NCBI GenBank assembly: GCA_043771335.1
Contig: JAYVHM010000001.1
Location: 28,773-92,772 of the forward strand
From: a bacterium
GTDB lineage: Bacteria; Patescibacteriota; Minisyncoccia; Phycocordibacterales; UBA5272
Direction of reading: 5' to 3'
Length of the DNA stretch: 64,000 nucleotides
A model generated the notes under the pieces. It had not been told where the DNA came from. It did not search any database and saw only the letters and a program-made list of their open reading frames with translations. Shown in pieces: positions 4,003 to 64,000 of the stretch (position 1 is the stretch's first letter; every line of letters begins with the position of its first letter). The position numbers were made by a program, and so were the translations under genes.

Positions 4003-4014
4003 TTTCAATTTTGT

Positions 4015-4046: not shown

Positions 4047-4110
4047 TTTGATATTTTTTACATTTTATGTTATAATTCTAGTCTAAAATAAGTACAAAAA
4101 TTACAAATAT

Positions 4111-5904
4111 ATGCAACAAGAAATTAGAAATATCGCGATTATCGCCCATGTGGACCATGGAAAAACAACTCTTACTGACTCACTAATGCAGCAATGCGGT
4201 ACAGGAGAAAAAGGAGCAACGATGGACAGTAATGCACTAGAACAAGAGCGTGGTATTACCATTTATGCTAAAAATACTTCTGTAGATTACAAAGGTGTAA
4301 AGATAAATATTTTAGATACACCAGGTCATGCTGACTTTGGATCTGAGGTGGAGCGTGTATTACGTTCTATTGACTCGGTGTTGCTTGTTGTTGATGCTCA
4401 GGAAGGCCCTATGCCTCAGACACGTTTTGTACTTAAAAAATCTCTCGAGCTTGGATTAAAACCAATAGTAGTTATAAATAAAATTGATAAACCGGCAGCT
4501 GATGCATCTCGCGTGCATGATGAAGTGTTTGAATTATTTATGGAGCTAGGTGCTAATGATGAGCAGTTACAATTTTCAACAGTGTATGCTATAGGCCGTG
4601 ATGGTGTTGCTATGAAAAATGAATTAGACGAGCGTGTTAACCTTGACCCACTTTTAGATATGATTTTAGAAAAAGTTCCAAAAGCAACAGGTGATGTAAA
4701 TAATAAATTCAAAGCACAAGTATTTAATCTTGCATATGATAACTTCCTAGGTCGTATGGCGACGGCTCGTATTTATGATGGTAAAGTTAAAATGGGACAA
4801 ACTATTACAGTTATAAAGCCAACAGGTGAGACTAGAACTGGTAAGATTTCAAAAATGTTTGCCTTTCGTGGCATTTCAAGAGTAGAGGTACAAGAGGGTG
4901 TAGCTGGTGACATTGTGATGATCGCTGGATTCCCAGATATTTTTATTGGAGAGACTTTTGCAGAAGATGCTACACTGGAGCCAGTAAAAGCTATCAATGT
5001 AGATGAGCCAACTATCGCACTTTACTTCCTTGTTAATGATTCACCATTTGCAGGAAAAGAAGGTAAATTTGTAACTACAAGACAAATCAGAGATAGACTA
5101 GAAAAAGAATTAGAGGTTAACGTGGGTATGCGTGTTAATTTTGATGGAGATAGATATGAAGTGTTCGGACGTGGTGAGATGCATGTGTCAGTATTACTCG
5201 AGACTATGCGCCGTGAAGGATTTGAACTTCAGGTGTCACAACCGAAAGTTATCATACACACTCTTGCTGATGGAAGTAAAGAAGAGCCATATGAGGAGGT
5301 GGTAATAGACGTACCGACAGAACACAGCGGTATCGTTATGGAGAAAATGGGTAAACGTAAAGGTATGATCACAGACATGAATGAAAAAGACGGCACTACT
5401 CGTATCAAGGCCGAGATACCAACTCGTGGATTACTTGGTTACCGTGGAGAATTTATCGTAGATACTAAAGGTCTCGGTATCTTATCAGCAAGATTTACAA
5501 AATTTGGACCGTATGCTGGAACTATTGACCGTCGTGACGTAGGATCTATGACATCTATGGAAACAGGTAAGGCACTTGGATTCTCTCTTTGGAACTTGCA
5601 AGATCGTGGTGTTATGTATATACATCCAGCTACTGAGGTATATGAGGGTATGATCGTAGGTAATACAAGCAAGGGAGAGGAGATGATGGTGAATCCAACA
5701 AAAGGTAAACAATTATCAAATATGCGTTCATCAGGAGCTGATGAAGCCATAACTCTTGTTCCTCCATTTGAGATTAGTATCGAGCGTGGACTTGAAATCA
5801 TGAATGCTGATGAATACTTAGAGATAACTCCAAAATCAGTAAGACTTCGTAAACAGCTTTTAACTGATACAGAGAGATCAAAGAATAAAAGAAAAGATAA
5901 TTAA
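4111..5904 (+). CDS. typA: Translational GTPase TypA/BipA
   Basis: The G1 motif 'AIIAHVDHGKTTL' and G3 'DTPGHADF' are present. The protein is 597 aa with an EF-G-like domain order. Confidence 0.9.
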   Translation: MQQEIRNIAIIAHVDHGKTTLTDSLMQQCGTGEKGATMDSNALEQERGITIYAKNTSVDYKGVKINILDTPGHADFGSEVERVLRSIDSVLLVVDAQEGPMPQTRFVLKKSLELGLKPIVVINKIDKPAADASRVHDEVFELFMELGANDEQLQFSTVYAIGRDGVAMKNELDERVNLDPLLDMILEKVPKATGDVNNKFKAQVFNLAYDNFLGRMATARIYDGKVKMGQTITVIKPTGETRTGKISKMFAFRGISRVEVQEGVAGDIVMIAGFPDIFIGETFAEDATLEPVKAINVDEPTIALYFLVNDSPFAGKEGKFVTTRQIRDRLEKELEVNVGMRVNFDGDRYEVFGRGEMHVSVLLETMRREGFELQVSQPKVIIHTLADGSKEEPYEEVVIDVPTEHSGIVMEKMGKRKGMITDMNEKDGTTRIKAEIPTRGLLGYRGEFIVDTKGLGILSARFTKFGPYAGTIDRRDVGSMTSMETGKALGFSLWNLQDRGVMYIHPATEVYEGMIVGNTSKGEEMMVNPTKGKQLSNMRSSGADEAITLVPPFEISIERGLEIMNADEYLEITPKSVRLRKQLLTDTERSKNKRKDN

Positions 5905-5947
5905 TTTGCCTAAACTCTAAAATTTGTTTTTATTCTAAATATAACAC

Positions 5948-5978
5948 AAAAATACTCTTATATATTAAGAGTATTTTT
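5948..5978. terminator. Bidirectional intrinsic terminator between convergent typA and dnaB
   Basis: The palindrome AAAAATACTCTTA-TATAT-TAAGAGTATTTTT has A/T runs on both sides. Confidence 0.55.
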
Positions 5979-6006
5979 ATGTTAAAAAGTATATATTCGT
6001 TTTCAT

Positions 6007-7458
6007 CTAAAAACCGCTCACGCTCATTGCTGGCATTTGAAAATCTCCAAATGCGTCCTCGGCGACTTCTGAGAAGCTGGTAGTCTTTGCATCGAACATT
6101 AACTTGACCATTCCTGTAGCACCATTACGATGTTTTTCTATCAGTAACTCTACCACATTATTATTCTGAGCCTGCTCACCATACTTCTCTTCACGATGTA
6201 TGAACATAACCACGTCAGCATCCTGCTCGATTGATCCTGAGTCACGAAGGTCGGACAGGCGAGGTTTACCTCCACGCTGTTCTACATTACGACTTAGCTG
6301 TGATAGAGCGATTACGGGGCAGTTGAACTCTTTTGCTAACACTTTTAATGATTTAGATATATCACTCACCTGATGCACCATGCTATCAAAATTTTTAGTA
6401 GTGCTCATAAGTTGTAAGTAGTCCACTATGATTAACCCTACAGGCTTCTCAGCGCGTAACCTACGTAACACTGAGCGCATGTTCACAATGTTATTAGCTG
6501 GCGTATCGTCTATGAATATCGGAGCTTTTGACAATTCATTTAGTCCTTGTTGCAGTCTCTCTATGTCATGTTCCATAGATAATTTCCCAGTACGCAGTTT
6601 CCAGCCATCCACATGTGACTGAGCAGCTAGCATACGGTCAAAAAGCTGCTCTTTACTCATTTCCAATGAGAATATTGCAGTGTGCACATTATGCTTCACG
6701 GCTGCTGAACGGGCAAAGTCTAACATGAGTGATGACTTACCAACAGACGGACGGGCAGCTAAAATAATTAAGTCAGATTTTTGAAATCCAGATAGTTTGT
6801 GATCAACAGAAGAGAAGCCAGTCGGCACGCCACGCAGACTACCATCGTCACCCTGCATCATTTCTATTCTTTCCCAGGCACCGTCTATTAGCTCAGCTAA
6901 TTTTACTAATTTCCCGGCACCAGTTCCAAAACTAGTTATCTCAAATATATCTTTTTCTGCTGTCTCTAATATATGTTCTACTTCGTGTTTTTCTTCGTAA
7001 CTTACATCGGCTATTTTTGTACTAACTTCTATGAGCCTTCTTAAGAGTTCTTTCTTTTTTAAAATAGTCGCATAGTATTTTATATTTGCAGCAGATGCTA
7101 CGAAATTAGAAAGCTCAGCCAAATAAGCTGGTCCACCTATTTGATCTAAAATATTTTTTTGTTTTAATTTATTATTGAGCGAGATTAGGTCTACCGGTTC
7201 CTTTGCAGCAGTTAACTCTTGCATTGTATTCCATATGCTTCTGTGTTTTTCTGCATAGAAACTTTTCTCTCGTATCAAATCTTCTATATCATAGTAACTT
7301 TCAGGTGAGATGATGATAGCGCCGAGCAGAGCACGCTCACTATCTATATCTTGAGGAGGCACACGCATACCATCAAATGGATTCTTGCTATCATATCTTC
7401 TATTCTTGTCTCCAAAATTATCATATTTCTTTTTATATTCTTTTTGTGAGTCTGACAT
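6007..7458 (-). CDS. dnaB: Replicative DNA helicase DnaB
   Basis: The protein is 483 aa with a RecA-like C-domain and a Walker A 'ARPSVGKSS'. The motifs 'GLIIVDYLQLM' and 'ALSQLSR' are typical of DnaB. Confidence 0.9.
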   Translation of the reverse strand: MSDSQKEYKKKYDNFGDKNRRYDSKNPFDGMRVPPQDIDSERALLGAIIISPESYYDIEDLIREKSFYAEKHRSIWNTMQELTAAKEPVDLISLNNKLKQKNILDQIGGPAYLAELSNFVASAANIKYYATILKKKELLRRLIEVSTKIADVSYEEKHEVEHILETAEKDIFEITSFGTGAGKLVKLAELIDGAWERIEMMQGDDGSLRGVPTGFSSVDHKLSGFQKSDLIILAARPSVGKSSLMLDFARSAAVKHNVHTAIFSLEMSKEQLFDRMLAAQSHVDGWKLRTGKLSMEHDIERLQQGLNELSKAPIFIDDTPANNIVNMRSVLRRLRAEKPVGLIIVDYLQLMSTTKNFDSMVHQVSDISKSLKVLAKEFNCPVIALSQLSRNVEQRGGKPRLSDLRDSGSIEQDADVVMFIHREEKYGEQAQNNNVVELLIEKHRNGATGMVKLMFDAKTTSFSEVAEDAFGDFQMPAMSVSGF

Positions 7459-7692
7459 GATATTTTTTAATTTATTATTTTTGTAAAAAGATATTAAGTT
7501 ATTTCTTATTTATAATTATAATATTTTAACAGTTATATATCTAGACTATGCAAGTCAAATATCTGTGTATTATGTGTAGAAGTCAAAATAATCATAAAAA
7601 TATAACTCTTGCATTTCAAAGACTTTTGTTGTAGTATGTAAAAGTAAGCCTATTTTAGGTTCTAAATCAACTTTTAAAGAAAGAGGTACAAA

Positions 7693-7998
7693 ATGGCAAC
7701 TTCCAGATTCATACAGGCCGCAGTAAGAGCCTTAGATCACACTGTCCAGAATAATCCTAACTGCGTCTGCAGTATTGATTTTAAGAATTCGCAAATTCTC
7801 CCATTCTTTCGAATTAATAATGTGCCAGAGTTTTTAAAAAATACAGAAGTAAAGCATTATAAAGTTACTATAAAAATAGTTGATTCTACTAAAAAAATCT
7901 CAAAAGTTATTTATAAAATACATAGGTCTCATCAACGTTGGTGGTTCAGGATCATTGAAGAAACTGAACTGGATGAATTCATAGAAATAGATGGTTAA
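7693..7998 (+). CDS. Hypothetical protein (101 aa)
   Basis: An ORF with a downstream hairpin terminator. No motif was recognised. Confidence 0.35.
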   Translation: MATSRFIQAAVRALDHTVQNNPNCVCSIDFKNSQILPFFRINNVPEFLKNTEVKHYKVTIKIVDSTKKISKVIYKIHRSHQRWWFRIIEETELDEFIEIDG

Positions 7999-8007
7999 AT
8001 TAAGATA

Positions 8008-8036
8008 AATGCGCAAAATATTGCGCATTTTTATTT
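8008..8036. terminator. Bidirectional intrinsic terminator
   Basis: The hairpin AATGCGCAA-AATA-TTGCGCATT is followed by TTTTATTTT, between convergent genes. Confidence 0.55.
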
Positions 8037-8046
8037 TATTTATTTA

Positions 8047-8715
8047 TTATTTCCTAAAACTAAAAGCAGATTTAAAAGTATCATGATCTATATACTCCAT
8101 CTCAAGACCAGTAGACACACCACGAGCTAACATTGAGATTTTTACTTTATCCATACCAACTACTTGGGTTATGGTTTTTTTAATATATTCCACCTGATTA
8201 TCACCTTCGTCATTCGCTGGTAATGCAAATATTATCTCAGATAAATTAGCAGTTTTCTCTTCTGAGTTTTCTTGATTTTCTACTCTAGAATCTAATTTCT
8301 TTCTAAGTATTTCCACCAGCTCACGTATTCTTATATGCTCTCGAGGGTCATCGACAAGGAAAGGTAACTTACCTCCGGTTACAAAGTATACACCACTATA
8401 CTCAGAAGTTTTTTCTATGGCATTTACGTCTAATTCTTTTTCTACGATTAATACTACTTTTCTGTCTCTGCTTTCGTCACTACAAATATTACATAATTTA
8501 TTTTTCTCAACATTTACATTTGTATTAGAAAAAAAAGAATAACACTCAGCACATTGTGAGCTATTTAATTTTATATTCAAAATATTTTTGGATAAGCTAT
8601 CTATAAAGTTTTTATTCTGTTTCATCAAGTAATAAGCAAAACGCTCAGCCTGCTTTGGGCCGATACCAGGTAATCTCTGTAAATCTGCTATGAGGCTATC
8701 TTTTACGTTATTCAT
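8047..8715 (-). CDS. recR: Recombination protein RecR
   Basis: The N-terminal HhH motif 'LPGIGPKQAERFAYYL' is present, followed by a C4 zinc finger 'CAECYSF...CNICS' and a Toprim domain. The protein is 222 aa. Confidence 0.85.
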   Translation of the reverse strand: MNNVKDSLIADLQRLPGIGPKQAERFAYYLMKQNKNFIDSLSKNILNIKLNSSQCAECYSFFSNTNVNVEKNKLCNICSDESRDRKVVLIVEKELDVNAIEKTSEYSGVYFVTGGKLPFLVDDPREHIRIRELVEILRKKLDSRVENQENSEEKTANLSEIIFALPANDEGDNQVEYIKKTITQVVGMDKVKISMLARGVSTGLEMEYIDHDTFKSAFSFRK

Positions 8716-8763
8716 AGGTTTTGAGTTATTTTCTTTGTTAATTATAGCATATTTACAGCTTCA

Positions 8764-8772
8764 TGCTATAAT
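8764..8772 (+). promoter_or_regulatory. Extended -10 promoter element TGCTATAAT
   Basis: Exact TGnTATAAT match 24 nt upstream of the 8796 ATG. Confidence 0.45.
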
Positions 8773-8795
8773 TATAATTCGAACAATATAAATAT

Positions 8796-9962
8796 ATGCA
8801 AAAAAAAGTAAATATAAAAAAGTTTTTATCAAAATTCACACAAAATACACTTTTAAAACAACTTTTTGAAATGCATCATAATGAGATAGATAAAAAGGGA
8901 AAGAAAAAATTCACTGTGCCAAATATAATGGATGGAAAAAATGATGAGAAGGTCACTGATGACTGGTATGAATTTTACAAAAGTCTTGAATTAGAAGATA
9001 GAGAAAATATAAATGAAAGCATAGAAAAAATAAATCTACTTTGTAATAAAGATTCTAATGACATATATAAAAATTACACCAGCAAGACTGACCCCACAGC
9101 AAATGAGGTAATAGCATTTTCATTCCACGATAAGGGGCTCGCATTTTTTATTGACCATTTTGAAAAGTTTGAAGATATTATATTTATAATTTCTTTTTAT
9201 AAAAAAAATAGCTGGAAAAGATTTGAAGCAAAAGGTGCCGTAGAAAAAGATATAGAAGTTATAGATGAGGAGTTAAAAGAAAAATATTCTGAGTATCTAG
9301 AAGCGGTTATTGGGAGTAGTGTGGGAGCGAGTCTCGAAGTTAAAACTTTAAAACATGACAATATGTTCATGACTAATATTTCTTATCGTGATGGTGGCAT
9401 TAAAAATATTTCGCTAGTTTACCTCTTTGAGCATCAAGAAGTTATGGTAAAAGCATCAGGTAACAAAGAAGTACAGTTCGCCTACGCAGAAATGTATATG
9501 AAGAAGGTCAATGGCTTTGCTATGGATTATAAAGAGATGAGTTATGACCTGGATACTTTTGTTAACTTGGAAGATTTTAAAGCACCACTTCAAGACAATA
9601 CAAATGTGAATGCTTGGGCAGTTAAAAGTGTAAAGTTAATTAGTGGCAGAAGTCAGATTAATATTACTTTTAAATTAAGCGATGAAGAGAAGTATATGCA
9701 AGGCATGCATAATACTTTTGAGAATCTAAACATGTTAGAAGGTCTAAAATCTGGAATACACAAGATAAATAACGTTAGCTTTAACATGCAAGTAACCGGT
9801 GAAGATTATAACAAGGGCAAGAAAAATGTTGGGGTTATAATAAAAGAAAACGCCACCAACCTGAATATATTAAAAAAGGAACACAGGCTAATAGATAAAA
9901 TCTTAAAAGATAGGGCAGTAGCGACAGGGTATAAAGACATAGAAATCAGCAAGCAAAAATAG
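8796..9962 (+). CDS. Hypothetical protein (388 aa), immediately upstream of tRNA-Glu
   Basis: A long, Lys/Glu-rich ORF. No motif was recognised. Confidence 0.45.
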   Translation: MQKKVNIKKFLSKFTQNTLLKQLFEMHHNEIDKKGKKKFTVPNIMDGKNDEKVTDDWYEFYKSLELEDRENINESIEKINLLCNKDSNDIYKNYTSKTDPTANEVIAFSFHDKGLAFFIDHFEKFEDIIFIISFYKKNSWKRFEAKGAVEKDIEVIDEELKEKYSEYLEAVIGSSVGASLEVKTLKHDNMFMTNISYRDGGIKNISLVYLFEHQEVMVKASGNKEVQFAYAEMYMKKVNGFAMDYKEMSYDLDTFVNLEDFKAPLQDNTNVNAWAVKSVKLISGRSQINITFKLSDEEKYMQGMHNTFENLNMLEGLKSGIHKINNVSFNMQVTGEDYNKGKKNVGVIIKENATNLNILKKEHRLIDKILKDRAVATGYKDIEISKQK

Positions 9963-9990
9963 GTTTTTATTTTGCATAATTTCAAATATA

Positions 9991-9999
9991 TGTTATAAT
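9991..9999 (+). promoter_or_regulatory. Extended -10 promoter TGTTATAAT, probably driving tRNA-Glu
   Basis: Exact TGnTATAAT match about 35 nt upstream of the tRNA 5' end. Confidence 0.5.
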
Positions 10000-10034
10000 A
10001 TAAAAGTTAAATACTTTCCAAGGTATTTAACGCT

Positions 10035-10106
10035 GGTCCCATCGTCTAATGGTTAGGACAACAGGTTTTCAATCTGTTAACGGGAGTTCGACTCTCCCTG
10101 GGATCA
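10035..10106 (+). tRNA. tRNA-Glu (anticodon UUC)
   Basis: A manual cloverleaf was drawn. It has a 7-bp acceptor stem GGTCCCA/TGGGATC, a D arm GTCT..GGAC, an anticodon stem ACAGG/TCTGT with loop TTTTCAA giving anticodon TTC, and a T arm GGGAG-TTCGACT-CTCCC. No CCA is encoded. Confidence 0.8.
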
Positions 10107-10147
10107 CAAAAATGAAAAAAATGTTAACAAGATAAGAGATAAAAAAA

Positions 10148-15472: not shown

Positions 15473-16516
15473 ATGCAAAAAGTTCAATTAACGTTCAAAC
15501 CGAAAGCAGTTTCTAAGAAATTACTAAATGCTCTTAATCCTAGGACAAAAGAAGTTATAACCAAACGTTATGGCTTACTTGATAATGAGAGAAAAACTTT
15601 AGAGTCTATAGGAAAGGAATATGGTATCACAAGAGAGAGAGTTAGACAAATAGAAAACTTCGCATTGGGCACAATACGCAAGTCACAAGATTACAAAGAT
15701 CATCAAAACGTTTTTGAAGAATTAGCCGAAGTAGTAAAAAACATGGGCTCAGTAGTTCCAGAGGACATATTAATGGAAGTATTTTCTAATGATAAAGTAG
15801 TACATAATCACATGAACTTTTTTATGACTGTTTCGGATAAATTCAATAGGCACAAGGAAGATGATAACTTTAATCACAGATGGAGCATAGATGACAAGAT
15901 AGCAACACATGTGCATGACGCACTTACTAACTTACACACTACAGTAAGTAAGGACGAACTCTTAAAAGAAGAAGATATAATAGCTAGATTCTTAGCTAAC
16001 CTTATAGATCTTGGAGATGATTACAAAAATAATCGTGAAGTTATAGATAGATATCTAAAAATCTCAAAGATAATCTCTAAAAATCCACTCAATGAATGGG
16101 GTCATGTCTCTAGCCCATCTGTAAAAGCAAGAGGAATAAAAGACTTTGCATATTTGATATTACGCAAAAATGGAACCCCTATGCATTTTCGTGAAGTAGC
16201 TAATACTATAAACAAAACTTTTAATAAAAATGCTCATGTCGCTACTTGCCATAATGAATTAATAAAAGACAAGAGATTCGTATTAGTAGGGCGTGGTATG
16301 TACGGATTGCGTGAGTGGGGTCAAGTAGGGGGAACAGTTAAGGACCTTATCAACATCGTCATTAATGAAGCAGGTGAGAAAATGAAAAAAGATGACATTG
16401 TAAGAAAAGTATTAGAACTTCGTGACGTAAAAGAGAATACTGTTTTAGTTAATCTTAACAATCCAAAATTATTTAAGAAATTAGCAGATAATCACTACAA
16501 TGTGCTTTCAAAATAA
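15473..16516 (+). CDS. Putative transcription factor: N-terminal sigma-70 region-4-like HTH plus C-terminal HARE-HTH (RNAP delta N-domain-like) winged helix
   Basis: The N-terminal 'LESIGKEYGITRERVRQIENFAL' matches the sigma70 region 4 consensus. The C-terminal 'MHFREVANTINKTF...FVLVGRGMYGLREWG' matches the HARE-HTH 'G.Y/WGLR.W' signature. Confidence 0.5.
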   Translation: MQKVQLTFKPKAVSKKLLNALNPRTKEVITKRYGLLDNERKTLESIGKEYGITRERVRQIENFALGTIRKSQDYKDHQNVFEELAEVVKNMGSVVPEDILMEVFSNDKVVHNHMNFFMTVSDKFNRHKEDDNFNHRWSIDDKIATHVHDALTNLHTTVSKDELLKEEDIIARFLANLIDLGDDYKNNREVIDRYLKISKIISKNPLNEWGHVSSPSVKARGIKDFAYLILRKNGTPMHFREVANTINKTFNKNAHVATCHNELIKDKRFVLVGRGMYGLREWGQVGGTVKDLINIVINEAGEKMKKDDIVRKVLELRDVKENTVLVNLNNPKLFKKLADNHYNVLSK

Positions 16517-33755: not shown

Positions 33756-34433
33756 ATGCTTTACTTCGAAAATGTAACAAAGGAATACTTAGGGAAAAAG
33801 ATACTAGATGGAATCAATATAAATATAGAAAAAGGCGAACTTGTTAGTATAGTAGGACATTCTGGTGCAGGTAAAACTTCTCTTATAAAATTATTATTAG
33901 CTGAAGAAAAGCCGACACATGGTAAAGTCTCTTTTCATTCTACATCTATACACACTTTAAAAGGCAGACTACTGAATGACTACAGAAGAAAAATAGGTGT
34001 AGTCTTTCAAGATTTTAGATTATTACCTAATAGAACAGCATATGAAAATATAGCCTTCGCAATGGAAGCAGCAGGGAAGAGCGACGCAGAGATAAAATCT
34101 GATGTTCCTCATGTTTTAGATCTTGTGGACCTTAAGGACAAGCTGCATCATTTTCCACATCAAATGTCAGGAGGAGAAAAACAACGTGTAGCTATAGCAC
34201 GCGCAATAGTTAACAGGCCTGATATAATAATCGCTGATGAGCCGACAGGTAATCTAGACCCTGTTAATACTTATGATATAGTTCAAATATTTAAAAAAAT
34301 AAATGACTTGGGAACCACTGTCATACTAACTACTCACAACAAGGGTGTGATAGATAATTTAGGTAAGAGAGTAATTACTATGGATGGTGGTAAAGTCTCT
34401 CGTGATGATAAAAATGGCAAATATGTCATTTAG
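33756..34433 (+). CDS. ftsE: Cell-division ABC transporter ATP-binding protein FtsE
   Basis: The Walker A 'GHSGAGKTS', the ABC signature '[14 protein letters not shown]' and the Walker B '[11 protein letters not shown]' are present. Confidence 0.9.
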
Positions 34434-34454
34434 AAAAAAATAATTAAAAAATAT

Positions 34455-35372
34455 ATGCAACTTTTCAAAAGAATAATCACAGCAGGTTTCAATGGTTTTT
34501 ACAGAAATAGAACCATATCTATTTCTTCTATTTTTATATTAGTAGTTACTCTTTCTATAATAGCTAGTATACTTATGTTCAGGGATGTTTTCAATAACTC
34601 TATAACACAAATAAAAACTAAGGTCGACATTAGTATATATCTTAAAAATGACACTACTGATGCATCTATAATTTCTATAAAGCAAAAGTTACAGGGCATA
34701 TCAACAGTAAAAGATGTTAACTTTGTCTCAAAAGATGAGACTTTAGAAAAATTTAAAGAGCAATATAAAAATGATACCGCAACTATAAAAGCTTTAGATG
34801 AAGTTGGAGTTAATCCATTTGGGGCCAGCTTCCAAGTTATAGCAAAAGACACAACTGATTACAATAACATAATGAAGAAAATAGAGACAGAGAATTACTT
34901 GGGAGATGACACAAAAGACATAGACAAGATAAACTACGTAGACATAAAAGATAGTATAGAAAAATTAAATAGCTTAATAACTTGGTTCAATACTTTTGGT
35001 ATAACGATGATTACAATCTTCATAATAATGTCTCTTATGATTGTATATAATACAATAAGGTTGGCCATATTTACTTTCAAAGATGAGATCTCAGTCATGA
35101 AGCTTGTTGGTGCCAGTGACATGTATATACGTGGTCCATTTATAGTTGAATCAATTCTTTACGGTGCAATAGCTTCACTCATAACTACGATTATTTTTTA
35201 TCCCATAACAAAGTATGTTACAAATAAAACTTTGGACTTTTTTGGAGGATATAGTATACACGCATATTACCTGGATAACATAGCATTGATATTTGTAACT
35301 CTATTTATATCTGGAACTTTAGTGGCTATTATATCTTCTGTGCTTGCAGTTAGAAAATATTTGAGTGTTTAA
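34455..35372 (+). CDS. ftsX: Cell-division permease-like protein FtsX
   Basis: The protein has a TM helix, a large extracytoplasmic domain and three C-terminal TM helices, and it is immediately downstream of ftsE. Confidence 0.8.
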   Translation: MQLFKRIITAGFNGFYRNRTISISSIFILVVTLSIIASILMFRDVFNNSITQIKTKVDISIYLKNDTTDASIISIKQKLQGISTVKDVNFVSKDETLEKFKEQYKNDTATIKALDEVGVNPFGASFQVIAKDTTDYNNIMKKIETENYLGDDTKDIDKINYVDIKDSIEKLNSLITWFNTFGITMITIFIIMSLMIVYNTIRLAIFTFKDEISVMKLVGASDMYIRGPFIVESILYGAIASLITTIIFYPITKYVTNKTLDFFGGYSIHAYYLDNIALIFVTLFISGTLVAIISSVLAVRKYLSV

Positions 35373-44493: not shown

Positions 44494-45444
44494 ATGTTCG
44501 TTTCTAAAAAAATCTTACTGGCTGTAGTTTCTGGTGCTTTGTTGCTGACTGCCTGCGGTGAGGAAGTTGCTGTAAAAAGTAAAAATCCTACTGCTTCTGG
44601 GCCAATAACAACAAACCTAACAGATAACAGCTCAGCTCAAGTAAAACAAACAATGATTACACAAGTATCAAAAAAACATACCGTCAAGAAAGGTGAGTTT
44701 TTAAATGCTATCGCAGGCCGTTATGGTGTCGAGCGCGAAGCGCTCATCTTAGAAAATGCTAAGATGTTGATCGATGAATACGAAGATGCTTGCGAGCGTG
44801 CTCATAAAAAAGCACATAAAAGCAAAAGTCTCTTTTGTAATGAAAATTACAAACGCTCATGGTCCAACACTTTGCTACCTGGCTGGAAAATAACAATTCC
44901 AGCAGCAGCGAGTACATCAACAGAAATGACCACTACGTTCGGCGCTGAAAAAGTTGCAGCGATTACAACTGCTGTATCTAGCCTGAGTGGTGACGACTCG
45001 CTTTCGGTCTTACTGGATGTCTCTGGGTCCATGGGATCAAAACGACAAATGGTCGCCCAATATGTCATGGATACACTAAAAGTAAGTGGTAAAAAATTTG
45101 CTGGACTGTATGTCTATTCAGCTGAAGTTCGTAGCATTAATAATGCCATCGATGCGCCTAGCTTACGCGAGGCATTAACAGCCTCCTACAGTTCATCTGT
45201 AGTTGGTGACACTTCAATTGAAAATACTCACAAAGCACTCAAATATGTTTTTGCTAATAAAAAAGCAACACATGTGCTAGTGATTAGCGATGAAGTTGGT
45301 AATGACTGGAACTGGTCTACGGTGAAAGACATGAAGAATATCATTGCTGTCTGTGTGTCAAATACTCAAGGCCAAGAACCTTGTAATGATAGCTTCAAAA
45401 AACTGTCAAAAGAAGCTACAAATTCTAAGTATATACAGTTGTAA
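44494..45444 (+). CDS. Secreted lipoprotein with LysM and von Willebrand factor A (vWA) domains
   Basis: A signal peptide and lipobox 'LLLTAC' are present. The LysM motif reads 'HTVKKGEFLNAIAGRYGV...LLPGWKITIP'. The vWA MIDAS motifs are 'DVSGSMGS', 'GDTSIENTHKAL' and 'VISDEVGND'. Confidence 0.6.
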   Translation: MFVSKKILLAVVSGALLLTACGEEVAVKSKNPTASGPITTNLTDNSSAQVKQTMITQVSKKHTVKKGEFLNAIAGRYGVEREALILENAKMLIDEYEDACERAHKKAHKSKSLFCNENYKRSWSNTLLPGWKITIPAAASTSTEMTTTFGAEKVAAITTAVSSLSGDDSLSVLLDVSGSMGSKRQMVAQYVMDTLKVSGKKFAGLYVYSAEVRSINNAIDAPSLREALTASYSSSVVGDTSIENTHKALKYVFANKKATHVLVISDEVGNDWNWSTVKDMKNIIAVCVSNTQGQEPCNDSFKKLSKEATNSKYIQL

Positions 45445-54124: not shown

Positions 54125-54949
54125 ATGTCTGACAATGACAAAAAATCAAGTAACCTGCCTGCAATTTTTACTGCTCGTGACGCAAAAGCGAAAACAAGTG
54201 ATGAGCTAGCAATCGTAGCAAAGACTCATGCCCTGGACCCAGTCCTAAAAAAGCATGGTATCACCAGCACTGTAATCGACAAGTTCCGGTCAGTAGCTGA
54301 TGTTAGCGGATCTATGAATGTTTATTTTGATAACGGATTCGTACAAATCGCTACTGAGCTTGTCATTACTCTGTCACATCGCTTATTAAAAAATGAAAAT
54401 GCTGAAGTTGACTGTATTGGCCTTGGTAATGTCGCAAAAAATATTGGTAAGATTACTAAGAATCGGTACGGTTCTGCAGCGGCGCTAATACGCTCTCAAT
54501 TTGAAAATGATGAGCGAGGCACACTATACCTGCCAGCGATCAAAATGGCAGTAGGTAGTGGTGACATATCTGATGTTATTTACATTAGCTTTATTACTGA
54601 TGGCGAGGATGAGGGCAATCGTAATGATTTTATAAATTATGTTAAAAGCATAAAAAATAAAAAAGTTTTTGTGCAGTTCATCGGCCTAGGCAGCGAATAT
54701 GATCCACGCACCGGTGGTACTACAGGAGAGTTTTCCACTTTGATACAGCTGGAAAAAGATTGTGATTATGTAGGATTTTTCTCAATGAAAAATCCGAAAA
54801 CTACAAGCGAAGATGATGTGTATGACAAGATGCTTTACAAATTTGCCACATGGGCAAAGATTAATGGCATCATTGATATTTTCTCGGGAGCACAATCTAG
54901 TACTCCAAAAGTATCAGACCTTCGTCAAAAATATTTAGAATTAGGATAA
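54125..54949 (+). CDS. Cytoplasmic vWA-domain protein (TerF/TerY-like vWA, tentative subfamily)
   Basis: The MIDAS motifs are 'DVSGSMN', 'RGTLYLPAI' and 'FITDGEDEG'. There is no signal peptide. Confidence 0.6.
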   Translation: MSDNDKKSSNLPAIFTARDAKAKTSDELAIVAKTHALDPVLKKHGITSTVIDKFRSVADVSGSMNVYFDNGFVQIATELVITLSHRLLKNENAEVDCIGLGNVAKNIGKITKNRYGSAAALIRSQFENDERGTLYLPAIKMAVGSGDISDVIYISFITDGEDEGNRNDFINYVKSIKNKKVFVQFIGLGSEYDPRTGGTTGEFSTLIQLEKDCDYVGFFSMKNPKTTSEDDVYDKMLYKFATWAKINGIIDIFSGAQSSTPKVSDLRQKYLELG

Positions 54950-54994: not shown

Positions 54995-56086
54995 TTATAT
55001 ATTTTGTATCTTTTTTTTGAAAGATTTTACACTACTTAACAGATCATCTGTTCCTGCATAATATGTTGAACTTCCATCGTAAGTTGTAGAAGATCCTAAA
55101 GTAACAAACATCATTTCAATCAGAAGCTCAAGCTTTTCATCTACCTTTGTACCGCTATCATTATTGACTTTTCCAGTCTCTCTTACATTTTCAAGAAGTT
55201 TTTCCAATGCATCAGCATTCAAAGACATCCTGTCATATGGAGATATTTTATCCTCAACTGATTTTAACTTTAAATTCACTTTATTGATTCGGCTTCTAAT
55301 TTCCTCTAATTTCTTAGACTCTTTATCGGCTTCAGCTTTTATGGCTTCCACTTCAGCTTTTTTGTTTGCAACTATTTTTTCAAACATATCCAGCTCAGAA
55401 GCAACATCAGCTTTGAAAGCATCTTCTTTCTTTGTTAATTTAGAAAGGAGTTCAGCTTCTTTTACTTTAACAGATTTTGGCTCGATGGTTTGGACTAAAA
55501 TAGTTTGAAGATAAGCCAAATCTTCTAATGTGCTTTTCTTGTCTAAAAGACTAACTAATTCCTCACTAGTAGATTTTGTTTCTTTCTCTAATTGTTCCGA
55601 GAGTTTTAATTGATCTGCAAAATATGCAGGTAATGTCTCTGGGTTTTTATTAAAAATAATAATCATTAATCTTTCGAACCAATTATGTTTTACATCAATT
55701 ACAATTTTTGTTACATTTGGTTTTTCTAGAAATTCTGAAAAGTTTACTGATGAATATTTCGAAAAAGATTTTTTTAATTTTGACAAATACTTACTATCAA
55801 AGTCAGCAAGTAAATTAGATAAGTCTAAAAATAAATCAGAAGCTTTTTCAGATTCTGTAAAAAACTTTTGCTTTTCACTTTCTACTTCGGTTATTTTATT
55901 TTTAAGATTTTCAACTAACTCAGAAGACTCTCTCTCTGGATTCACCTGACCAGAACAAAGCTCGTGCGCTAGGTCTGTATCTTTTTTAACTAAGGCTCTT
56001 GCAAATCTTAAAGATGTATCACTCACAACATCGTCCAATAACATTCTTAGAACTAATTTTCTCAACTTTTCAATACTTGTGCTCAT
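54995..56086 (-). CDS. All-alpha coiled-coil protein, possibly TelA/KlaA-like (toxic-anion-resistance family), tentative
   Basis: The 363-aa protein is predicted almost entirely helical with heptad-rich stretches. Both its length and its vWA neighbour fit Ter/TelA-type gene neighbourhoods. The family assignment is made from memory of that architecture only. Confidence 0.3.
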   Translation of the reverse strand: MSTSIEKLRKLVLRMLLDDVVSDTSLRFARALVKKDTDLAHELCSGQVNPERESSELVENLKNKITEVESEKQKFFTESEKASDLFLDLSNLLADFDSKYLSKLKKSFSKYSSVNFSEFLEKPNVTKIVIDVKHNWFERLMIIIFNKNPETLPAYFADQLKLSEQLEKETKSTSEELVSLLDKKSTLEDLAYLQTILVQTIEPKSVKVKEAELLSKLTKKEDAFKADVASELDMFEKIVANKKAEVEAIKAEADKESKKLEEIRSRINKVNLKLKSVEDKISPYDRMSLNADALEKLLENVRETGKVNNDSGTKVDEKLELLIEMMFVTLGSSTTYDGSSTYYAGTDDLLSSVKSFKKKIQNI

Positions 56087-58524: not shown

Positions 58525-58740
58525 ATGCAATCACTCGTTTTAGCTACAAATGTGATATTATCTGTAACATTAATAGTGTTAATCCTTATACAAAGGTCTA
58601 ATACTGACGCTGGTGGAGCCTTTTCACAAGACTCGGCGACCAGCTTCAAACGTCGCGGACTAGAATCAACAATATACAAATCAACAATAATTGTTGCTGT
58701 GCTTTTTGTTTTATCATTAGCATATCATGCTTTTATTTAG
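58525..58740 (+). CDS. secG: Preprotein translocase subunit SecG
   Basis: The 71-aa protein has two TM helices and the characteristic 'LILIQRSNTDAGGAFS' glycine-rich loop. Confidence 0.7.
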   Translation: MQSLVLATNVILSVTLIVLILIQRSNTDAGGAFSQDSATSFKRRGLESTIYKSTIIVAVLFVLSLAYHAFI

Positions 58741-58853
58741 ATATACTCATAAATCAAGTTAGATTTAGAGAATATAAGATTTTAAAAATACAGAAAAATA
58801 TCACAAAAGTCTGTTAGCTTTACAAATGAGTCACTTTGCAATCATAAAAATAT

Positions 58854-60518
58854 ATGATTGACATAAAACTATTCAAAGAAAAAAAGATATTAGAGAAATT
58901 AAAAATCTCTCTTTTTAACCTTCCTCCTGAAAAAAGTTTCTACTCTGGATCTGCTTTTTTTCTGTGTGGTATATTAATTTTGATTTCTACTTTATATTTT
59001 TTAAGCAAGCTTACAGTATTAATACCATCCAGGAACCAAAATATTTCTATTGCCAATGTTGGTAACTTTAAATACTTTTTACCTTTTTATGCTCATTCTG
59101 ATATTGATAACTTTGTTAGTAGTCTACTCTATTCTGGCTTGCTAAAAAAAGACATAAACAATAACTACATAAATGATTTGGCAAATACCGTAACAAAAGA
59201 TGAATCAGGATCAAAAATAACTATACAATTAAAAGATAATTTAAAATTTTCAAATGGAAAACAAATAACTGCAGATGATGTCATATTCACTTACGAATTA
59301 GCTGCTAACATTCTAGTCGATGGTATAAACCGTGTAAAATACGAAGGTTTAACTTTTGAAAAGATAGATGACATAACCTTCACACTTAATCTCTCTAAAA
59401 ACTTTTCAAATGTAAATGAAATATTAACTCTTGGTATAATTTCTAAGGAAGACTATGTAAGTGATAACTTTGAGACGCTTAACACTTCTTCAAAATCTCT
59501 CTACAGCATTACTAGCGGTATATACAAAGTAAACTCTGTAGAAAAAGACGAAACTAATATTAAAAGTGTAAAATTATCTATTAACAATAACAAATACTCT
59601 GCCCCTTATTTAAAATACATTAACATAACAACATACAAAGCCGTAGAAGAGATAAATACTGAAATAGAAGACGGTGTTAATGTTGATGTGGTATTTAATT
59701 CAAACAAAGACACAAAAGATTTTACAAAAATAAATCACATTACTCCAAAAATTACCGCCCTGTTCCTAAATGGTAATAAAAAAGATATATTAGCTAAGAA
59801 AAAAAATAGAGAGTCTATATACTACGCGATAAACAGAAATGAATTAGTTGCTTCAACTGCTTCTGAGAATATACCGACTTTTGATTTGTTTCCTGCATCT
59901 GCATTAAGAACAGACCTCGACAATAATCAAGAAGTAGGACCTGTCTCTTCTTTGCCAGTAAATATAAATCTAACAATAGTCGATAATGAAAAACAAAATA
60001 AATTAGCTGAGTCAATAAAAGAATCTCTCTCTAAAATAAATATCAATATCAATATCGTCAAAGAAAATCAGAGCGACATATTAAATAATATAATTAAAAA
60101 TAGAGATTTTGAAATACTTTTATATTCTATAGAGATAAATAACCCAGAAGATCTGTACGCATTCTGGCACTCTAGCCAACGTAATGCTCCAGGATTAAAT
60201 ATTACAGGATACACCAGCACGGCTTTTGACAAAAATCTCTCCTCAATAAAAACCTCAGCCTCAGAAGAAGAAATTAAAAACTCTCTGGAGAATATGAAGG
60301 TAGAATTCTACACGGAGTATCCATATATACCTCTTTACACAACTACAGAATATCTAGAAATAAGAAATAACTTAACCCTAGAAACACCAAAACAAATATC
60401 AAATAAAAAAGAATTAAGCGCAGATATAATAAACTGGCACAAAGAAAAAGAAAAGATATGGCCAATCATAAACAAATACCAAGACAAGATTGCACTAATT
60501 TATAAATTAATACATTAA
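58854..60518 (+). CDS. Extracellular solute-binding protein, family 5 (OppA/DppA/NikA-like), membrane anchored
   Basis: An N-terminal TM or signal anchor is present. The segment 'YSGLLKKD...KFSNGKQITADDVIFTYEL' is typical of SBP_bac_5. The protein is 554 aa, and no permease or ATPase genes are adjacent. Confidence 0.55.
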   Translation: MIDIKLFKEKKILEKLKISLFNLPPEKSFYSGSAFFLCGILILISTLYFLSKLTVLIPSRNQNISIANVGNFKYFLPFYAHSDIDNFVSSLLYSGLLKKDINNNYINDLANTVTKDESGSKITIQLKDNLKFSNGKQITADDVIFTYELAANILVDGINRVKYEGLTFEKIDDITFTLNLSKNFSNVNEILTLGIISKEDYVSDNFETLNTSSKSLYSITSGIYKVNSVEKDETNIKSVKLSINNNKYSAPYLKYINITTYKAVEEINTEIEDGVNVDVVFNSNKDTKDFTKINHITPKITALFLNGNKKDILAKKKNRESIYYAINRNELVASTASENIPTFDLFPASALRTDLDNNQEVGPVSSLPVNINLTIVDNEKQNKLAESIKESLSKINININIVKENQSDILNNIIKNRDFEILLYSIEINNPEDLYAFWHSSQRNAPGLNITGYTSTAFDKNLSSIKTSASEEEIKNSLENMKVEFYTEYPYIPLYTTTEYLEIRNNLTLETPKQISNKKELSADIINWHKEKEKIWPIINKYQDKIALIYKLIH

Positions 60519-60526
60519 ACAAAAAT

Positions 60527-62245
60527 ATGCAAAATAGAAAACCATTTAAAAAATTTACACAAAATAGCGACCTTCTAGAAAGAAAAGGTGGGTATGTAGC
60601 GCCTCTAAAAGAAGGAAATATTAGAATCATAAATCTTGGGGGAACAGAAGAGTGTGGTAAAAACATGACAGCCCTAGAATACAAAGACAGCATAGTAATA
60701 ATAAATGCCGGAGTTCAGTTCTCAGCATCAAAAATGCCTGGAGTAGACTACATAATTCCAAATACAAAATACTTAGAAGAAAATATAGATAAAATAAAAG
60801 GTGTAATAATAACTAATAGCAGCCTAGAAAACTCTGGAGCTCTACCCTTTCTTATAGAAAAACTAGCGATTAAAAGAGTTTACGGTAGGCTATTTACTAA
60901 TACTTTGATACAAAAGAGAATGGAAGCAAAAGGGATAAATCACAACACCGAATTCGTTCCCGTAGAAGAAGAGATGGTAATGACTGTTGGAGATCTAGAG
61001 ATCAACTTTATAGCAATCAATCACACTACACCAGATTATTTTTCAATAGCAGTAAAAACTGAAGGTGGCGACATAGTATACACTAATGATACAAAAAATA
61101 TAAAAGATGCATTTGATTCTTCTTCTAAGAACATGCTCTTAATAGCTGAATCAATGAACACAGAAACTGGTGGTAAGCCAGTGACTTATCTTGATGTTAA
61201 GAATGATATAGAAGAGACTTTTAAAAGAGCTAGTAAAAAAATCATCGTCTCTACTTTTGCAAATAATATTTTTCATATTAAAACTATTTTAGAAGTAGCA
61301 GAAAAGTTAAATAAAAAAATCGTCTTAGATAGTAATACAATAAGTGAGAATATTTTATCAGCACAGGAGACTGGATTACTTGGTGACTTAAAAGACCTAA
61401 TCGTAAGTGTAGAGGATATAAGCAAATACAAAGCAAATGAAATAGTAATCTTAAACTCTGGAGAAGAAGGCCGTGAAGATGTTAACCTTACCAAAATAGC
61501 TGATGGGAATAATAGTAATATAAAAATAGAAGAAGGTGACGTGATAATAATAGCCACACATCCAATCATACACAATCAACGTTCTGCACAAAATCTAAAA
61601 GACAGTATCTCTAGATTAGGTGGTGTTATAAAACATTACAAATATGGTGACATCTTGATGAGTAACAGTGCTAATTTTGATGAGCTTACTGATTTACACA
61701 GAGGAATGAACCCAAAATTCTTTATTCCTGTTTCTGGTTGCCATTACATGTTACGTGTGCATGCTGACATAGAAAGAAAAATAGGAACTCCAGAAAATCA
61801 TATTATTATTCCAGATAATGGCATGGTAATAGAGGTCAAAACTGACGGATTAAGAATATCAAATACTCGTGAAAAAGTAGAGAGTGAGATAGTGGTAGTA
61901 GATGGAAATAAAATAGGCAAATTACACAATGTAGTAATAAAAGACAGAGAGACTTTGGGTGCTCAGGGTGTATTCTTTGCCATTATATTACTTGATATGC
62001 GTGGTCACAAATTGAAAAAGACTCCAGATATAGCAACACGCGGATTTGTATTTCTAAAAGAATCTCAAGACCTTCTAAATGGTGCCAGAGTTATAATCAA
62101 TGACATAATGACAGATTATCTGAGTAAAAATAGACACATAGAAATAGATGATTTAAAGGGAGAATTGCAAATGCTATTACAAAAATACTTAATGACGAAA
62201 ACTGCAAAAGAGCCGGTAGTTATACCACTAATAATAAAAGTATAA
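60527..62245 (+). CDS. RNase J paralogue with degenerate active site (predicted catalytically inactive)
   Basis: The protein is collinear with the downstream rnj ('IRIINLGGTEECGKNM' against 'IRIIHLGGLEEIGRNM'). The metallo-beta-lactamase motif 2 reads 'ITNSSLENSG' where 'ITHGHLDHIG' is expected. The beta-CASP His pair is also lost: 'SNSANFDE' replaces 'HSSGHANAGE', and 'SGCHY' replaces 'HGYHY'. Confidence 0.8.
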   Translation: MQNRKPFKKFTQNSDLLERKGGYVAPLKEGNIRIINLGGTEECGKNMTALEYKDSIVIINAGVQFSASKMPGVDYIIPNTKYLEENIDKIKGVIITNSSLENSGALPFLIEKLAIKRVYGRLFTNTLIQKRMEAKGINHNTEFVPVEEEMVMTVGDLEINFIAINHTTPDYFSIAVKTEGGDIVYTNDTKNIKDAFDSSSKNMLLIAESMNTETGGKPVTYLDVKNDIEETFKRASKKIIVSTFANNIFHIKTILEVAEKLNKKIVLDSNTISENILSAQETGLLGDLKDLIVSVEDISKYKANEIVILNSGEEGREDVNLTKIADGNNSNIKIEEGDVIIIATHPIIHNQRSAQNLKDSISRLGGVIKHYKYGDILMSNSANFDELTDLHRGMNPKFFIPVSGCHYMLRVHADIERKIGTPENHIIIPDNGMVIEVKTDGLRISNTREKVESEIVVVDGNKIGKLHNVVIKDRETLGAQGVFFAIILLDMRGHKLKKTPDIATRGFVFLKESQDLLNGARVIINDIMTDYLSKNRHIEIDDLKGELQMLLQKYLMTKTAKEPVVIPLIIKV

Positions 62246-62293
62246 AAATAAAAATTAGCACAAGAATAAAAATAAATAATTAATAAAAAATAT

Positions 62294-64000
62294 ATGCAAA
62301 AAAGAATAGTAGACTTTAATAAAAAAGCAGTACCTGCTCCAAAAAAAGAAAATAATTTTTCAAAACCAAATAGTTTTGACAGGAAACCTCCTGTAAAAAA
62401 AGATAAAAAATTAGTACAGCCAGTATTTGAATCACGCATGGGTGAACCAGATGAGACTGCACACATACCACCACTAGCTGATGGAGATATACGTATCATA
62501 CATCTCGGAGGTCTGGAAGAGATCGGCAGAAACATGTCTATGGTAGAATACAAAGACACAATAGTTGTAGTTGATTGTGGTATACAATTCTCAGAACAAT
62601 CAACACCAGGAATAGATTTTATCTTACCTAATACAAAATACTTAGAAGAGCGTGCTAATAAAATAAAAGGAGTATTCATAACTCATGGTCACTTAGACCA
62701 TATAGGAGCTATACCATATATCATGCCACGCATCGGTAATCCTACTATTTACGCTAGAAACTTTACGAACTTAATGATTAGAAAACGTCATGAAGAGTTC
62801 CCTTACCTTGAGCCATTAAAAATAAACGTAATAGAAAAAGGTGGCAGTGTTACTGTTGGTGATTTAAAAGTTAACTTCTTTGGAGTATCGCACGCTATTC
62901 CAGACAGTATGGGTATTATAATAGAAACACCTTATGGTGACATAGTGCACACTGGAGACCTTCGCCTGGATCATATAGATGGTATACCGAGTGAGCGTGA
63001 AGAAAAACAATATGAAGTATTTAAAGATAGAAAGACATTACTCTTAATGACAGACTCTACTAACTGTGAGAATCCTGGCTTCTCTATTTCTGACTCTATA
63101 GTATATGCAAATGTAGAAGCAGCTATTCGTGATACTCCTGGTAGGCTGATTATTTCTACTTTCTCTTCGCAAGTAGAGCGCATGATATTTATGCTAAAGA
63201 TGGCAGAAAAATATGGTAAAAAAGCCATAGTAGAAGGTAGAAGTATGAAAACAAATGTTGAAGTTACTCGCCTCGCAGAACTACTTGATGTTAAGCCAGA
63301 AACTATGATAAGCATAGATCAGATAGATAATTATCCACCTAATAAATTAATAGTTCTGGTGACTGGCGCACAAGGTGAGGACTTTGCGGCCCTCGGCCGT
63401 ATAGGGTTAAAGAATCATAAATATATAAAATTAAATAGATATGACACCATACTAATGAGCTCTTCAATAGTGCCTGGTAATGAGCGTCCAGTGCAAAAAT
63501 TAAAAGACAATCTCTCAAGACAAGGAGCACACTTGATACATTATAGAACTAGTGATGTGCACTCTTCTGGACATGCTAACGCTGGTGAATTAGAGTGGAT
63601 ACACAAAAAAATAAATCCAAAGTTCTTTATCCCTGTTCATGGTTACCATTATCTTCTAACTATGCATGCTGAGATAGCTATGAAGTGCCTAGGTCTACCA
63701 AAAGAAAATGTAGTTATCCCTGACAATGGCTCAGTTGTAGAGATAAGAAAAAATGGAACCGAAATAGTAATACTAAAAGAATCGGCGCCTAGGGATCTAC
63801 TAGTTGTAGATGGGACAAGTGTAGGAAAAGTCTCTGATGTTATATTAAAAGATAGATTAAATCTAGGAGAAGAAGGAGTGTTTTCTATTATTGTGATAAT
63901 AGATGGCGCCACACACAGAATAAAAAAATCTCCAGACATATCTTCACGTGGATTTATATATTTGAAAGAATCTCAGGAGCTACTAATGGATGTTCGTGAG
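62294..64000 (+). CDS. rnj: Ribonuclease J (intact catalytic motifs), which runs off the window end
   Basis: The HxHxDH motif 'ITHGHLDHIGAIPYI' is present, along with 'VSHAIPDS', 'TGDLRLD', the beta-CASP motifs 'HSSGHANAGE' and 'VHGYHY'. The ORF is open to position 64000. Confidence 0.85.
   Translation, partial: MQKRIVDFNKKAVPAPKKENNFSKPNSFDRKPPVKKDKKLVQPVFESRMGEPDETAHIPPLADGDIRIIHLGGLEEIGRNMSMVEYKDTIVVVDCGIQFSEQSTPGIDFILPNTKYLEERANKIKGVFITHGHLDHIGAIPYIMPRIGNPTIYARNFTNLMIRKRHEEFPYLEPLKINVIEKGGSVTVGDLKVNFFGVSHAIPDSMGIIIETPYGDIVHTGDLRLDHIDGIPSEREEKQYEVFKDRKTLLLMTDSTNCENPGFSISDSIVYANVEAAIRDTPGRLIISTFSSQVERMIFMLKMAEKYGKKAIVEGRSMKTNVEVTRLAELLDVKPETMISIDQIDNYPPNKLIVLVTGAQGEDFAALGRIGLKNHKYIKLNRYDTILMSSSIVPGNERPVQKLKDNLSRQGAHLIHYRTSDVHSSGHANAGELEWIHKKINPKFFIPVHGYHYLLTMHAEIAMKCLGLPKENVVIPDNGSVVEIRKNGTEIVILKESAPRDLLVVDGTSVGKVSDVILKDRLNLGEEGVFSIIVIIDGATHRIKKSPDISSRGFIYLKESQELLMDVRE

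Follow-up and report, generated by a model that had tools for sequence, protein, structure and literature searches.

Two adjacent RNase J genes and their active sites

The 64,000-nucleotide stretch of a Patescibacteria genome studied here, in the following called the window, ends in two consecutive rnj genes on the forward strand, which together with the SBP_bac_5 solute-binding-like gene before them form a row of three head-to-tail genes. The upstream rnj gene, copy 1 (60527..62245, TAA stop included), encodes a degenerate RNase J paralogue of 572 amino acids, identified from its open reading frame (ORF), Pfam and NCBIfam profiles and an alignment to Bacillus subtilis RNase J1 (3zq4). Copy 2, a canonical RNase J, starts with the ATG at 62294 and runs off the window at 64000; 569 of its 619 amino acids are present, which leaves its C-terminal domain incomplete here, and the full-length protein of 619 amino acids is found on the source contig (locus L001, 11768-13627). 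A spacer of 48 nucleotides, rich in A and T (62246..62293), separates the two copies. No third RNase J copy was found in the window by tblastn, and these two are the only RNase J genes there.

The two proteins share 38% identity across 513 amino acids (BLASTP, E=1e-130), and both have the three-domain architecture of RNase J, consisting of a metallo-beta-lactamase (MBL) domain with an inserted beta-CASP domain, a linker and a C-terminal domain. An initial annotation of this DNA had described them as collinear RNase J homologues of this build, which is borne out by BLASTP, Pfam and the end-to-end alignment with RNase J1 (E=3e-84 for copy 1 and 2e-114 for copy 2). Both copies match the Pfam families RNase_J_b_CASP (4.7e-23 and 3.5e-36 for copy 1 and copy 2, respectively) and RNase_J_C (1.5e-18 and 1.6e-10, respectively), whereas convincing matches to Lactamase_B and RMMBL are obtained for copy 2 only. 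Against the NCBIfam model TIGR00649, which has a cut-off of 400 bits, copy 2 passes with 426.7 bits despite its truncation, while copy 1 fails with 350.8 bits. The C-terminal (dimerisation) domain of copy 1 (residues 470-572, 61934..62242) is matched over its full length by RNase_J_C. An AF2 model of copy 1 (predicted local distance difference test, pLDDT, 79.8) finds its top PDB matches in RNase J1 and J2, with template modelling (TM) scores of 0.74-0.87 in Foldseek, and judged by this model the RNase J fold is kept.

With motif states taken from ungapped, high-posterior alignments, copy 2 has all MBL motifs 1-4 and the beta-CASP motifs A, B and C. On the forward strand these are motif 1 (VVVDCG), motif 2 (THGHLDHIG, 62681-62707), motif 3 (VSHAIPD, 62885-62905), motif 4 (HTGDLR, 62948-62965), motif A (MTDSTN), motif B (VHSSGHA, 63557-63577) and motif C (PVHGYHY, 63632-63652). 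The active site of copy 1 reads differently. In motif 1 (IVIINA) Asp is replaced by Asn, and motif 2 has become TNSSLENSG (60812..60838), in which N97, S99, E101 and N102 align to H74, H76, D78 and H79 of J1; all four ligands are replaced. At the histidine positions of motif B and the 5'-phosphate pocket, copy 1 has L377 and S381 (HSSGH to LMSNS, within ILMSNSA at 61652..61672), in a column that is unconserved among the degenerate copies described below, and S403 stands at the His position of motif C (PVSGCHY, 61727..61747). Motif A (IAESMN) has Glu instead of Asp and is still acidic.

The alignment to J1 thus agrees with the initial annotation, which had noted the change of HxHxDH to TNSSLEN and the loss of the beta-CASP histidines in copy 1, and the retention of all catalytic motifs in copy 2. 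Its description of the first active site as dismantled holds for motifs 1, 2, B and C, but not for motif 3 (INHTTPD, with His166) and motif 4 (YTNDTK, with Asp188), both located within 61016..61096. These two residues are the only metal ligands left in copy 1, and both are lost in its sister species. As a whole, copy 1 has neither the complete set of MBL metal motifs 1-4 nor the complete set of beta-CASP motifs A, B and C, and the ligand columns are variable among 11 degenerate copies from different species. A shifted HxHxDH in copy 1, for which histidines at neighbouring positions were sought, is ruled out, because residues 1-138 contain no His, the first possible one being at residue 139, and because the alignments of motif 2 are ungapped and of high posterior.

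Conservation and origin of the tandem

The order of a degenerate copy followed by a canonical one on the same strand is observed in at least 13 Patescibacteria species, at the loci L001 (the source contig), L003-L013 and L042, of which L003-L013 and L042 were taken from GTDB species representatives. In these 13 tandem loci the spacer between the two genes measures 3-49 nucleotides, and the ORFs of the degenerate copy are intact. An extra case, with a distant member of the degenerate group (P0018), is located on a 755-kb contig (L059), and in the 13 loci as well as in L059 the canonical copy adjoins the degenerate one. In the single-copy Patescibacteria loci examined, roughly 40, the gene is always canonical. 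In a protein search the degenerate copies, again with intact ORFs, fell into about 20 clusters with identities between 100% and 45%, and canonical Patescibacteria RNase J came next at about 41% identity. A protein identical to copy 1 is present on a 211-kb metagenomic scaffold (ENA ERZ28573538, scaffold_16; locus L001), and the same sequence was seen on several contigs and assemblies.

Copy 1 is retained under strong purifying selection. The ratio of nonsynonymous to synonymous substitution rates (dN/dS) between L001 and L003 is 0.037 (dS 0.94) for the degenerate copy, against 0.019 for its live partner, and at larger distances the degenerate copy shows values of 0.05-0.13. Across 17 degenerate copies, with identities down to 44%, 120 columns are invariant.

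This constraint is unevenly spread over the protein. Expressed as mean pairwise identity among 10 species, it amounts to 0.47 in degenerate against 0.83 in live copies for MBL-N, 0.44 against 0.79 for the beta-CASP domain, 0.58 against 0.74 for MBL-C and 0.68 against 0.75 for the linker, whereas the C-terminal domain reaches 0.63 in the degenerate and 0.57 in the live copies. There are 55 positions that are conserved in canonical RNase J and variable in the degenerate clade; 53 of them fall in the MBL and beta-CASP domains, including every ligand and the 5'-phosphate pocket, and a single one in the C-terminal domain. Positions constrained in the degenerate clade only number 28, of which the C-terminal domain contains 15 and MBL-C contains 8. 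The degenerate clade also has a beta-CASP signature, ATHPI(I/V)HNQR, where canonical copies have SSS(I/V)VPGNER, both of which are invariant; S269, E314 and K323 are further parts of this signature, which counts 11 such positions.

In the RNase J of Deinococcus radiodurans, a metal at the dimer interface has G59, D61 and D456 as ligands from one protomer and Q476/E477 from its partner, and dimerisation is abolished when the C-terminal domain is absent (PMC4477667). The equivalent residues in copy 1, G72, D74 and D459, are invariant in the 17 degenerate copies, and the position of E477 is taken by a Gln480 that is likewise invariant in copy 1 and the degenerate copies (n=17). Judged from these alignments, constraint is lost in the catalytic domains only, and the C-terminal domain and the interface residues equal or exceed those of the live partner in conservation.

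In neighbour-joining trees the degenerate copies and their live partners form two clades, each with a bootstrap of 100, which are sisters (bootstrap 94) and mirror each other in their branching. Just outside the tandem clades come single-copy relatives, whose SBP_bac_5 gene directly abuts rnj. Since the two clades are sisters and the single-copy relatives fall outside, the trees point to one old tandem duplication of rnj inside the Patescibacteria, independent of that behind J1/J2 in the Firmicutes. Copy 1 as an orthologue of Firmicutes J2 was rejected, as the live partners of the degenerate clade are its nearest relatives (bootstrap 94-100) and copy 1 scores higher with J1 (286 bits in phmmer) than with J2 (244 bits), its own neighbour giving 425 bits. 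The initial annotation had seen in the pair an extreme version of the J1/J2 arrangement of Bacillus. This remains apt in that copy 1 is more degenerate than J2, which has a one-metal site and residual activity, but the pair does not stem from the Bacillus duplication and arose independently inside the Patescibacteria.

The decay of the active site is graded across the clade. At its base, P0126 (L058, 170-1795) keeps HxHxDH, motif 3 and motif C, and has lost motifs 4, A and B. Copies with TSPHMDH or TSPNTDH in motif 2 retain the motif C His, those with TNSRLEH or TSSKLEH retain one motif 2 ligand, and those with TSSxLEY or TNSSLEN retain none.

A second pair of a degenerate and a live gene, in this order, is found in a GroEL-GroES/SecG-SBP neighbourhood at L060 (4001-7658) and L062 (4001-7771). 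Motif 2 of the degenerate copy reads TEASRTHSG or TDGAMSHIG here, and the live copy that follows has SHAHLDHIG. By the tree, the dead/live outcome has evolved at least twice in the Patescibacteria, because the four genes of these two loci, dead with live, group at 98% neighbour-joining bootstrap, while all dead copies come together in 1% of the replicates. On a wider scale, decay of RNase J paralogues is recurrent: among the 150 best RNase J representatives in a profile search of 1.84 billion representatives, 34 are non-canonical in at least one ligand position, several of them severely.

Some other loci deserve mention. At L063 (4001-7022) a gene for ribosomal protein S16 is followed by a degenerate and then a live copy, the last of which is cut, and at L061 (1-3128) the order is reversed, with a live-like copy before the degenerate one. 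In many otherwise canonical RNase J representatives (P0128-P0251) the motif C His is replaced (PIEG, PIQG, PVYG or PIGG); in this sample that His is less universal than the other RNase J motifs. The contig of L059 (ENA ERZ26695388 ctg156495, 755,644 bp; 3328-10096) contains in-frame TGA codons in the genes for the solute-binding protein (SBP; 4), the live RNase J (1) and RelA/SpoT (5). All three genes terminate in TAA, and the TGA in the RNase J gene aligns to the conserved Trp of ELEWIHKK, which suggests that UGA is recoded to Trp in this Paceibacterota-type genome.

Gene neighbourhood and further features of the window

The SBP_bac_5 gene (58854..60518, forward strand) encodes a solute-binding-like protein of 554 amino acids (Pfam SBP_bac_5, 6e-30, 105 bits) with an N-terminal hydrophobic stretch, and its stop lies 8 nucleotides before the start of copy 1. 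The initial annotation called it an orphan. It does lie directly upstream of the rnj genes, and neither Opp-type permease (OppB/C) nor ATPase (OppD/F) genes are found within 10 kb on either side, but the gene is a conserved neighbour of rnj: a homologue lies directly 5' of rnj in 45 related Patescibacteria loci of other genomes, drawn from L003-L054, single-copy loci included. SecG precedes SBP_bac_5 wherever gene tables were seen (window 58525-60518; L059, L060 and L062), so that SecG, SBP_bac_5 and rnj read as a conserved gene string. Single-copy Patescibacteria RNase J has the same neighbourhood and belongs to the same subfamily, of which copy 2 is an ordinary member; only in the tandem lineages does a degenerate extra copy lie between the SBP_bac_5 gene and rnj. 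An oligopeptide-type ABC importer was considered for the SBP_bac_5 gene and rejected, given the lack of Opp permease and ATPase partners nearby. The protein scores far below the cut-offs of the NCBIfam SBP equivalogs, and the ABC_tran/FtsX genes at 33756-35372 are of the FtsE/FtsX type.

The spacing of the three genes is short, and no terminator-like site on the forward strand is present in the 48-nucleotide spacer between the rnj copies. The SBP_bac_5 gene, the degenerate and the live RNase J genes are likely one transcription unit, with SBP_bac_5 first. A scan for promoter-like sites gave 21, fewer than the 27.9 expected from shuffled sequences. At the Rfam gathering threshold the sole match in the whole window is a tRNA-Glu (10035-10107), and no structured RNA or leader was found near the rnj genes. 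Both rnj starts (60519-60529 and 62280-62296) are preceded by an A-rich AAAAATATG context without a Shine-Dalgarno-like purine run, and in the spacers of the 13 tandem loci nearly all have AAAAAT or AATAT before the ATG.

Copy 2 begins with an N-terminal extension of about 60 residues, rich in Lys and Pro (KKAVPAPKKENNF...RKPPVKKDKK, 62294-62480), the P-x-A-P-P/K core of which is found again in live partners of other species. In the same position copy 1 has just about 25 unconserved residues. The extension could be an RNA- or ribosome-binding tail.

The window as a whole is low in GC (about 30-37%) and housekeeping in character, with genes for aminoacyl-tRNA synthetases, DnaB, BipA, ATP synthase, a release factor (RF), FtsEX, Suf and GatB, and the nearest named relatives are Patescibacteria/Paceibacterota. 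A few genes stand apart. One, at 15473-16516 (forward strand), encodes 347 amino acids with an N-terminal Sigma70 region 4 domain and a HARE-HTH domain, an unusual architecture. A vWA-TerF-like gene (54125-54949, forward strand) adjoins a gene on the reverse strand (54995-56086) for a Lys/Glu-rich, probably coiled-coil protein of 363 amino acids with no Pfam family on record, and another vWA/LysM-like protein is encoded at 44494-45444.

A putative non-catalytic partner of RNase J

Several known systems offer a comparison for this pair. J1 and J2 of the Firmicutes (rnjA and rnjB in B. subtilis, Staphylococcus and Streptococcus) are likewise two three-domain RNase J paralogues, one active and one impaired, and they form heterodimers and heterotetramers. 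The genes for copy 1 and copy 2 are adjacent and probably constitute one operon, whereas rnjA and rnjB of Bacillus are not known to lie in tandem. The impaired J2 is without the strict HxHxDH signature (PMC7864078), and Staphylococcus aureus with an active-site mutant of J2 grows normally, which points to a structural role (PMC4419217). The one-metal site of staphylococcal J2 consists of H76, H78, H80, H144 and E166, and in the S. aureus protein a His in place of the motif 2 Asp, together with a Glu at motif 4, suffices for weak activity (PMC11815676). J2 retains THGHEHA, the motif 3 His, the motif 4 Glu, the HASSH pocket, one Mn and measurable activity (the structure 6k6w reads THGHEHA / TTHSIPD / YTGEFK / HASSH), whereas copy 1 has no ligand His in motifs 2, B and C and does not contain a one-metal site of the J2 type.

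In eukaryotes, CPSF100 (with CPSF73) and IntS9 (with IntS11) are inactive beta-CASP paralogues without metal ligands that are paired with an active one, as here. These pairs associate through their C-terminal domains (Wu et al. 2017, cited in PMC8501993). Copy 1 is not orthologous to them (TM about 0.5 in Foldseek, with 14-17% identity to IntS11/CPSF73 chains); its C-terminal domain is of the bacterial RNase_J_C type, unlike that of the eukaryotic pairs, and nothing points to a larger complex here. A review (PMC8501993) likens J1/J2 to CPSF73/100 and IntS11/9 and, citing Callebaut 2002, lists active:inactive beta-CASP pairs from several bacteria. Copy 1 shares with this class of inactive partners the loss of ligands in an otherwise intact, selected protein and the presence of an active paralogue in the same genome. 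A literature search yielded no paper on RNase J paralogues in the Patescibacteria. The concept of an active/inactive pair is thus already known, and the present pair is an extreme, convergently evolved case of it.

On balance I consider it probable that copy 1 is an RNase J pseudoenzyme, a non-catalytic subunit and partner of the live enzyme. In an ancestor of the Paceibacterota-type lineage, rnj would have been duplicated in tandem, with the extra copy placed between the SBP_bac_5 gene and rnj. This upstream copy would then have lost its zinc/manganese ligands, the 5'-phosphate pocket and most of the constraint on the MBL and beta-CASP domains, while keeping the RNase J fold, the linker, the C-terminal domain and the residues of the dimer interface. 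Presumably co-transcribed with the canonical copy, it would provide a subunit that assembles with the live one via the C-terminal/linker interface, yielding an asymmetric dimer (or tetramer) in which each dimer has a single active site. The degenerate subunit might stabilise or tune the live one, for example in its balance of exo- and endonuclease activity, its choice of substrate or its recruitment of partners; such a role has been proposed for J2 alongside J1 in the Firmicutes and for CPSF100 and IntS9 alongside CPSF73 and IntS11 in eukaryotes. I infer the pairing from the pattern of constraint, the conserved tandem and the precedent of J1/J2, CPSF73/100 and IntS11/9. A non-catalytic partner subunit predicts the ligand loss, the selection, the strict adjacency and the domain-specific constraint that are observed, and is supported by them. 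This also supports the catalytically dead scaffold subunit predicted in the initial annotation, whose heterodimer formation and obligate character are putative.

Some points weigh against this partnership. In the species studied here, copy 1 retains His166 and Asp188 besides the invariant Glu101, through which, by analogy with S. aureus J2, some residual non-canonical catalysis could formally persist. The conservation of the C-terminal domain equally fits a homodimer of the degenerate copy. The trees are neighbour-joining trees on Kimura distances and not model-based. Co-transcription, finally, has the short spacing and the lack of a terminator-like site as its sole basis.

Tentatively, the degenerate copy may go beyond a passive scaffold and have gained a new function in regulating the enzyme or setting its specificity, as a subunit with an invariant surface of its own, such as ATHPIxHNQR in the beta-CASP domain or NTREK before the linker, which would have evolved convergently at least twice in the Patescibacteria. 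I regard this as possible, though it is not the reading I favour.

It seems unlikely that the degenerate copy is autonomous, that is, a homodimeric RNA-binding or regulatory protein with a new function, for instance in RNA-end protection or ligand sensing, and that the tandem is a mere scar of the duplication. The 5'-phosphate pocket and the 53 MBL/beta-CASP positions are unconstrained, contrary to what RNase J-type handling of RNA would require, even though the invariant beta-CASP signature specific to this clade would suit such a role and the conserved C-terminal domain is compatible with homodimers. Moreover, the two genes stay adjacent, with spacers of at most 50 nucleotides, down to about 45% identity and also in the second, independent duplication, and such linkage is unexpected for unrelated functions in shuffled, reduced genomes.

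Quite improbable is a weak nuclease working by a metal-poor general acid/base mechanism, as proposed for staphylococcal RNase J2. The activity of S. aureus J2 depends only on H80 and E166, its metal being mostly structural (PMC11815676), and in copy 1 not only are His166 and Asp188 present, but Glu101, which stands where motif 2 has its Asp, does not vary among the 17 copies of group A. However, neither His166 nor Asp188 is conserved in the degenerate clade: L010-L012 have N or S at motif 4, and the residue at motif 3 is highly variable. J2 moreover has three motif 2 histidines, the motif 3 His and a Ser/His pocket, whereas copy 1 has no motif 2 His and no conserved pocket, and the relaxed constraint over both catalytic domains is unexpected for an enzyme. 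The idea of a pseudogene in decay, or of misassembly at a duplicated region, is refuted, although a duplicate in decay would also show loss of catalytic motifs: at least 13 independent genomes have intact full-length ORFs, several contigs and assemblies carry the identical protein, dN/dS is 0.04-0.13, columns are invariant across the 17 copies and the predicted fold is confident.

Annotation pipelines call both genes 'ribonuclease J', by which the catalytic repertoire of these organisms is overstated. Genomes of the Candidate Phyla Radiation (CPR) are reported to keep rnj as a core non-redundant ribonuclease, and RNase J is among the few ribonucleases retained by CPR/Patescibacteria (PMC12641178), the genomes of which have shed almost all dispensable genes. 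Because such reduced genomes keep a selected dead paralogue in many species and in two lineages, the non-catalytic subunit probably does something important. The progressively decayed active sites, from HxHxDH in P0126 over TSPHMDH and TNSRLEH, with one or two ligands, to TNSSLEN with none, offer a natural series with which the structural role of J2-like subunits could be dissected. Should copy 1 be the specificity or regulatory subunit tentatively considered above, the main enzyme of RNA decay would work in these minimal cells as an asymmetric RNase J with a single active site, a bacterial counterpart of CPSF73/CPSF100 that arose independently. The tandems add further origins to the active/inactive beta-CASP pairs known from Firmicutes J1/J2, CPSF73/100 and IntS11/9, which lends weight to the view that beta-CASP enzymes have repeatedly arrived at asymmetric dimers.

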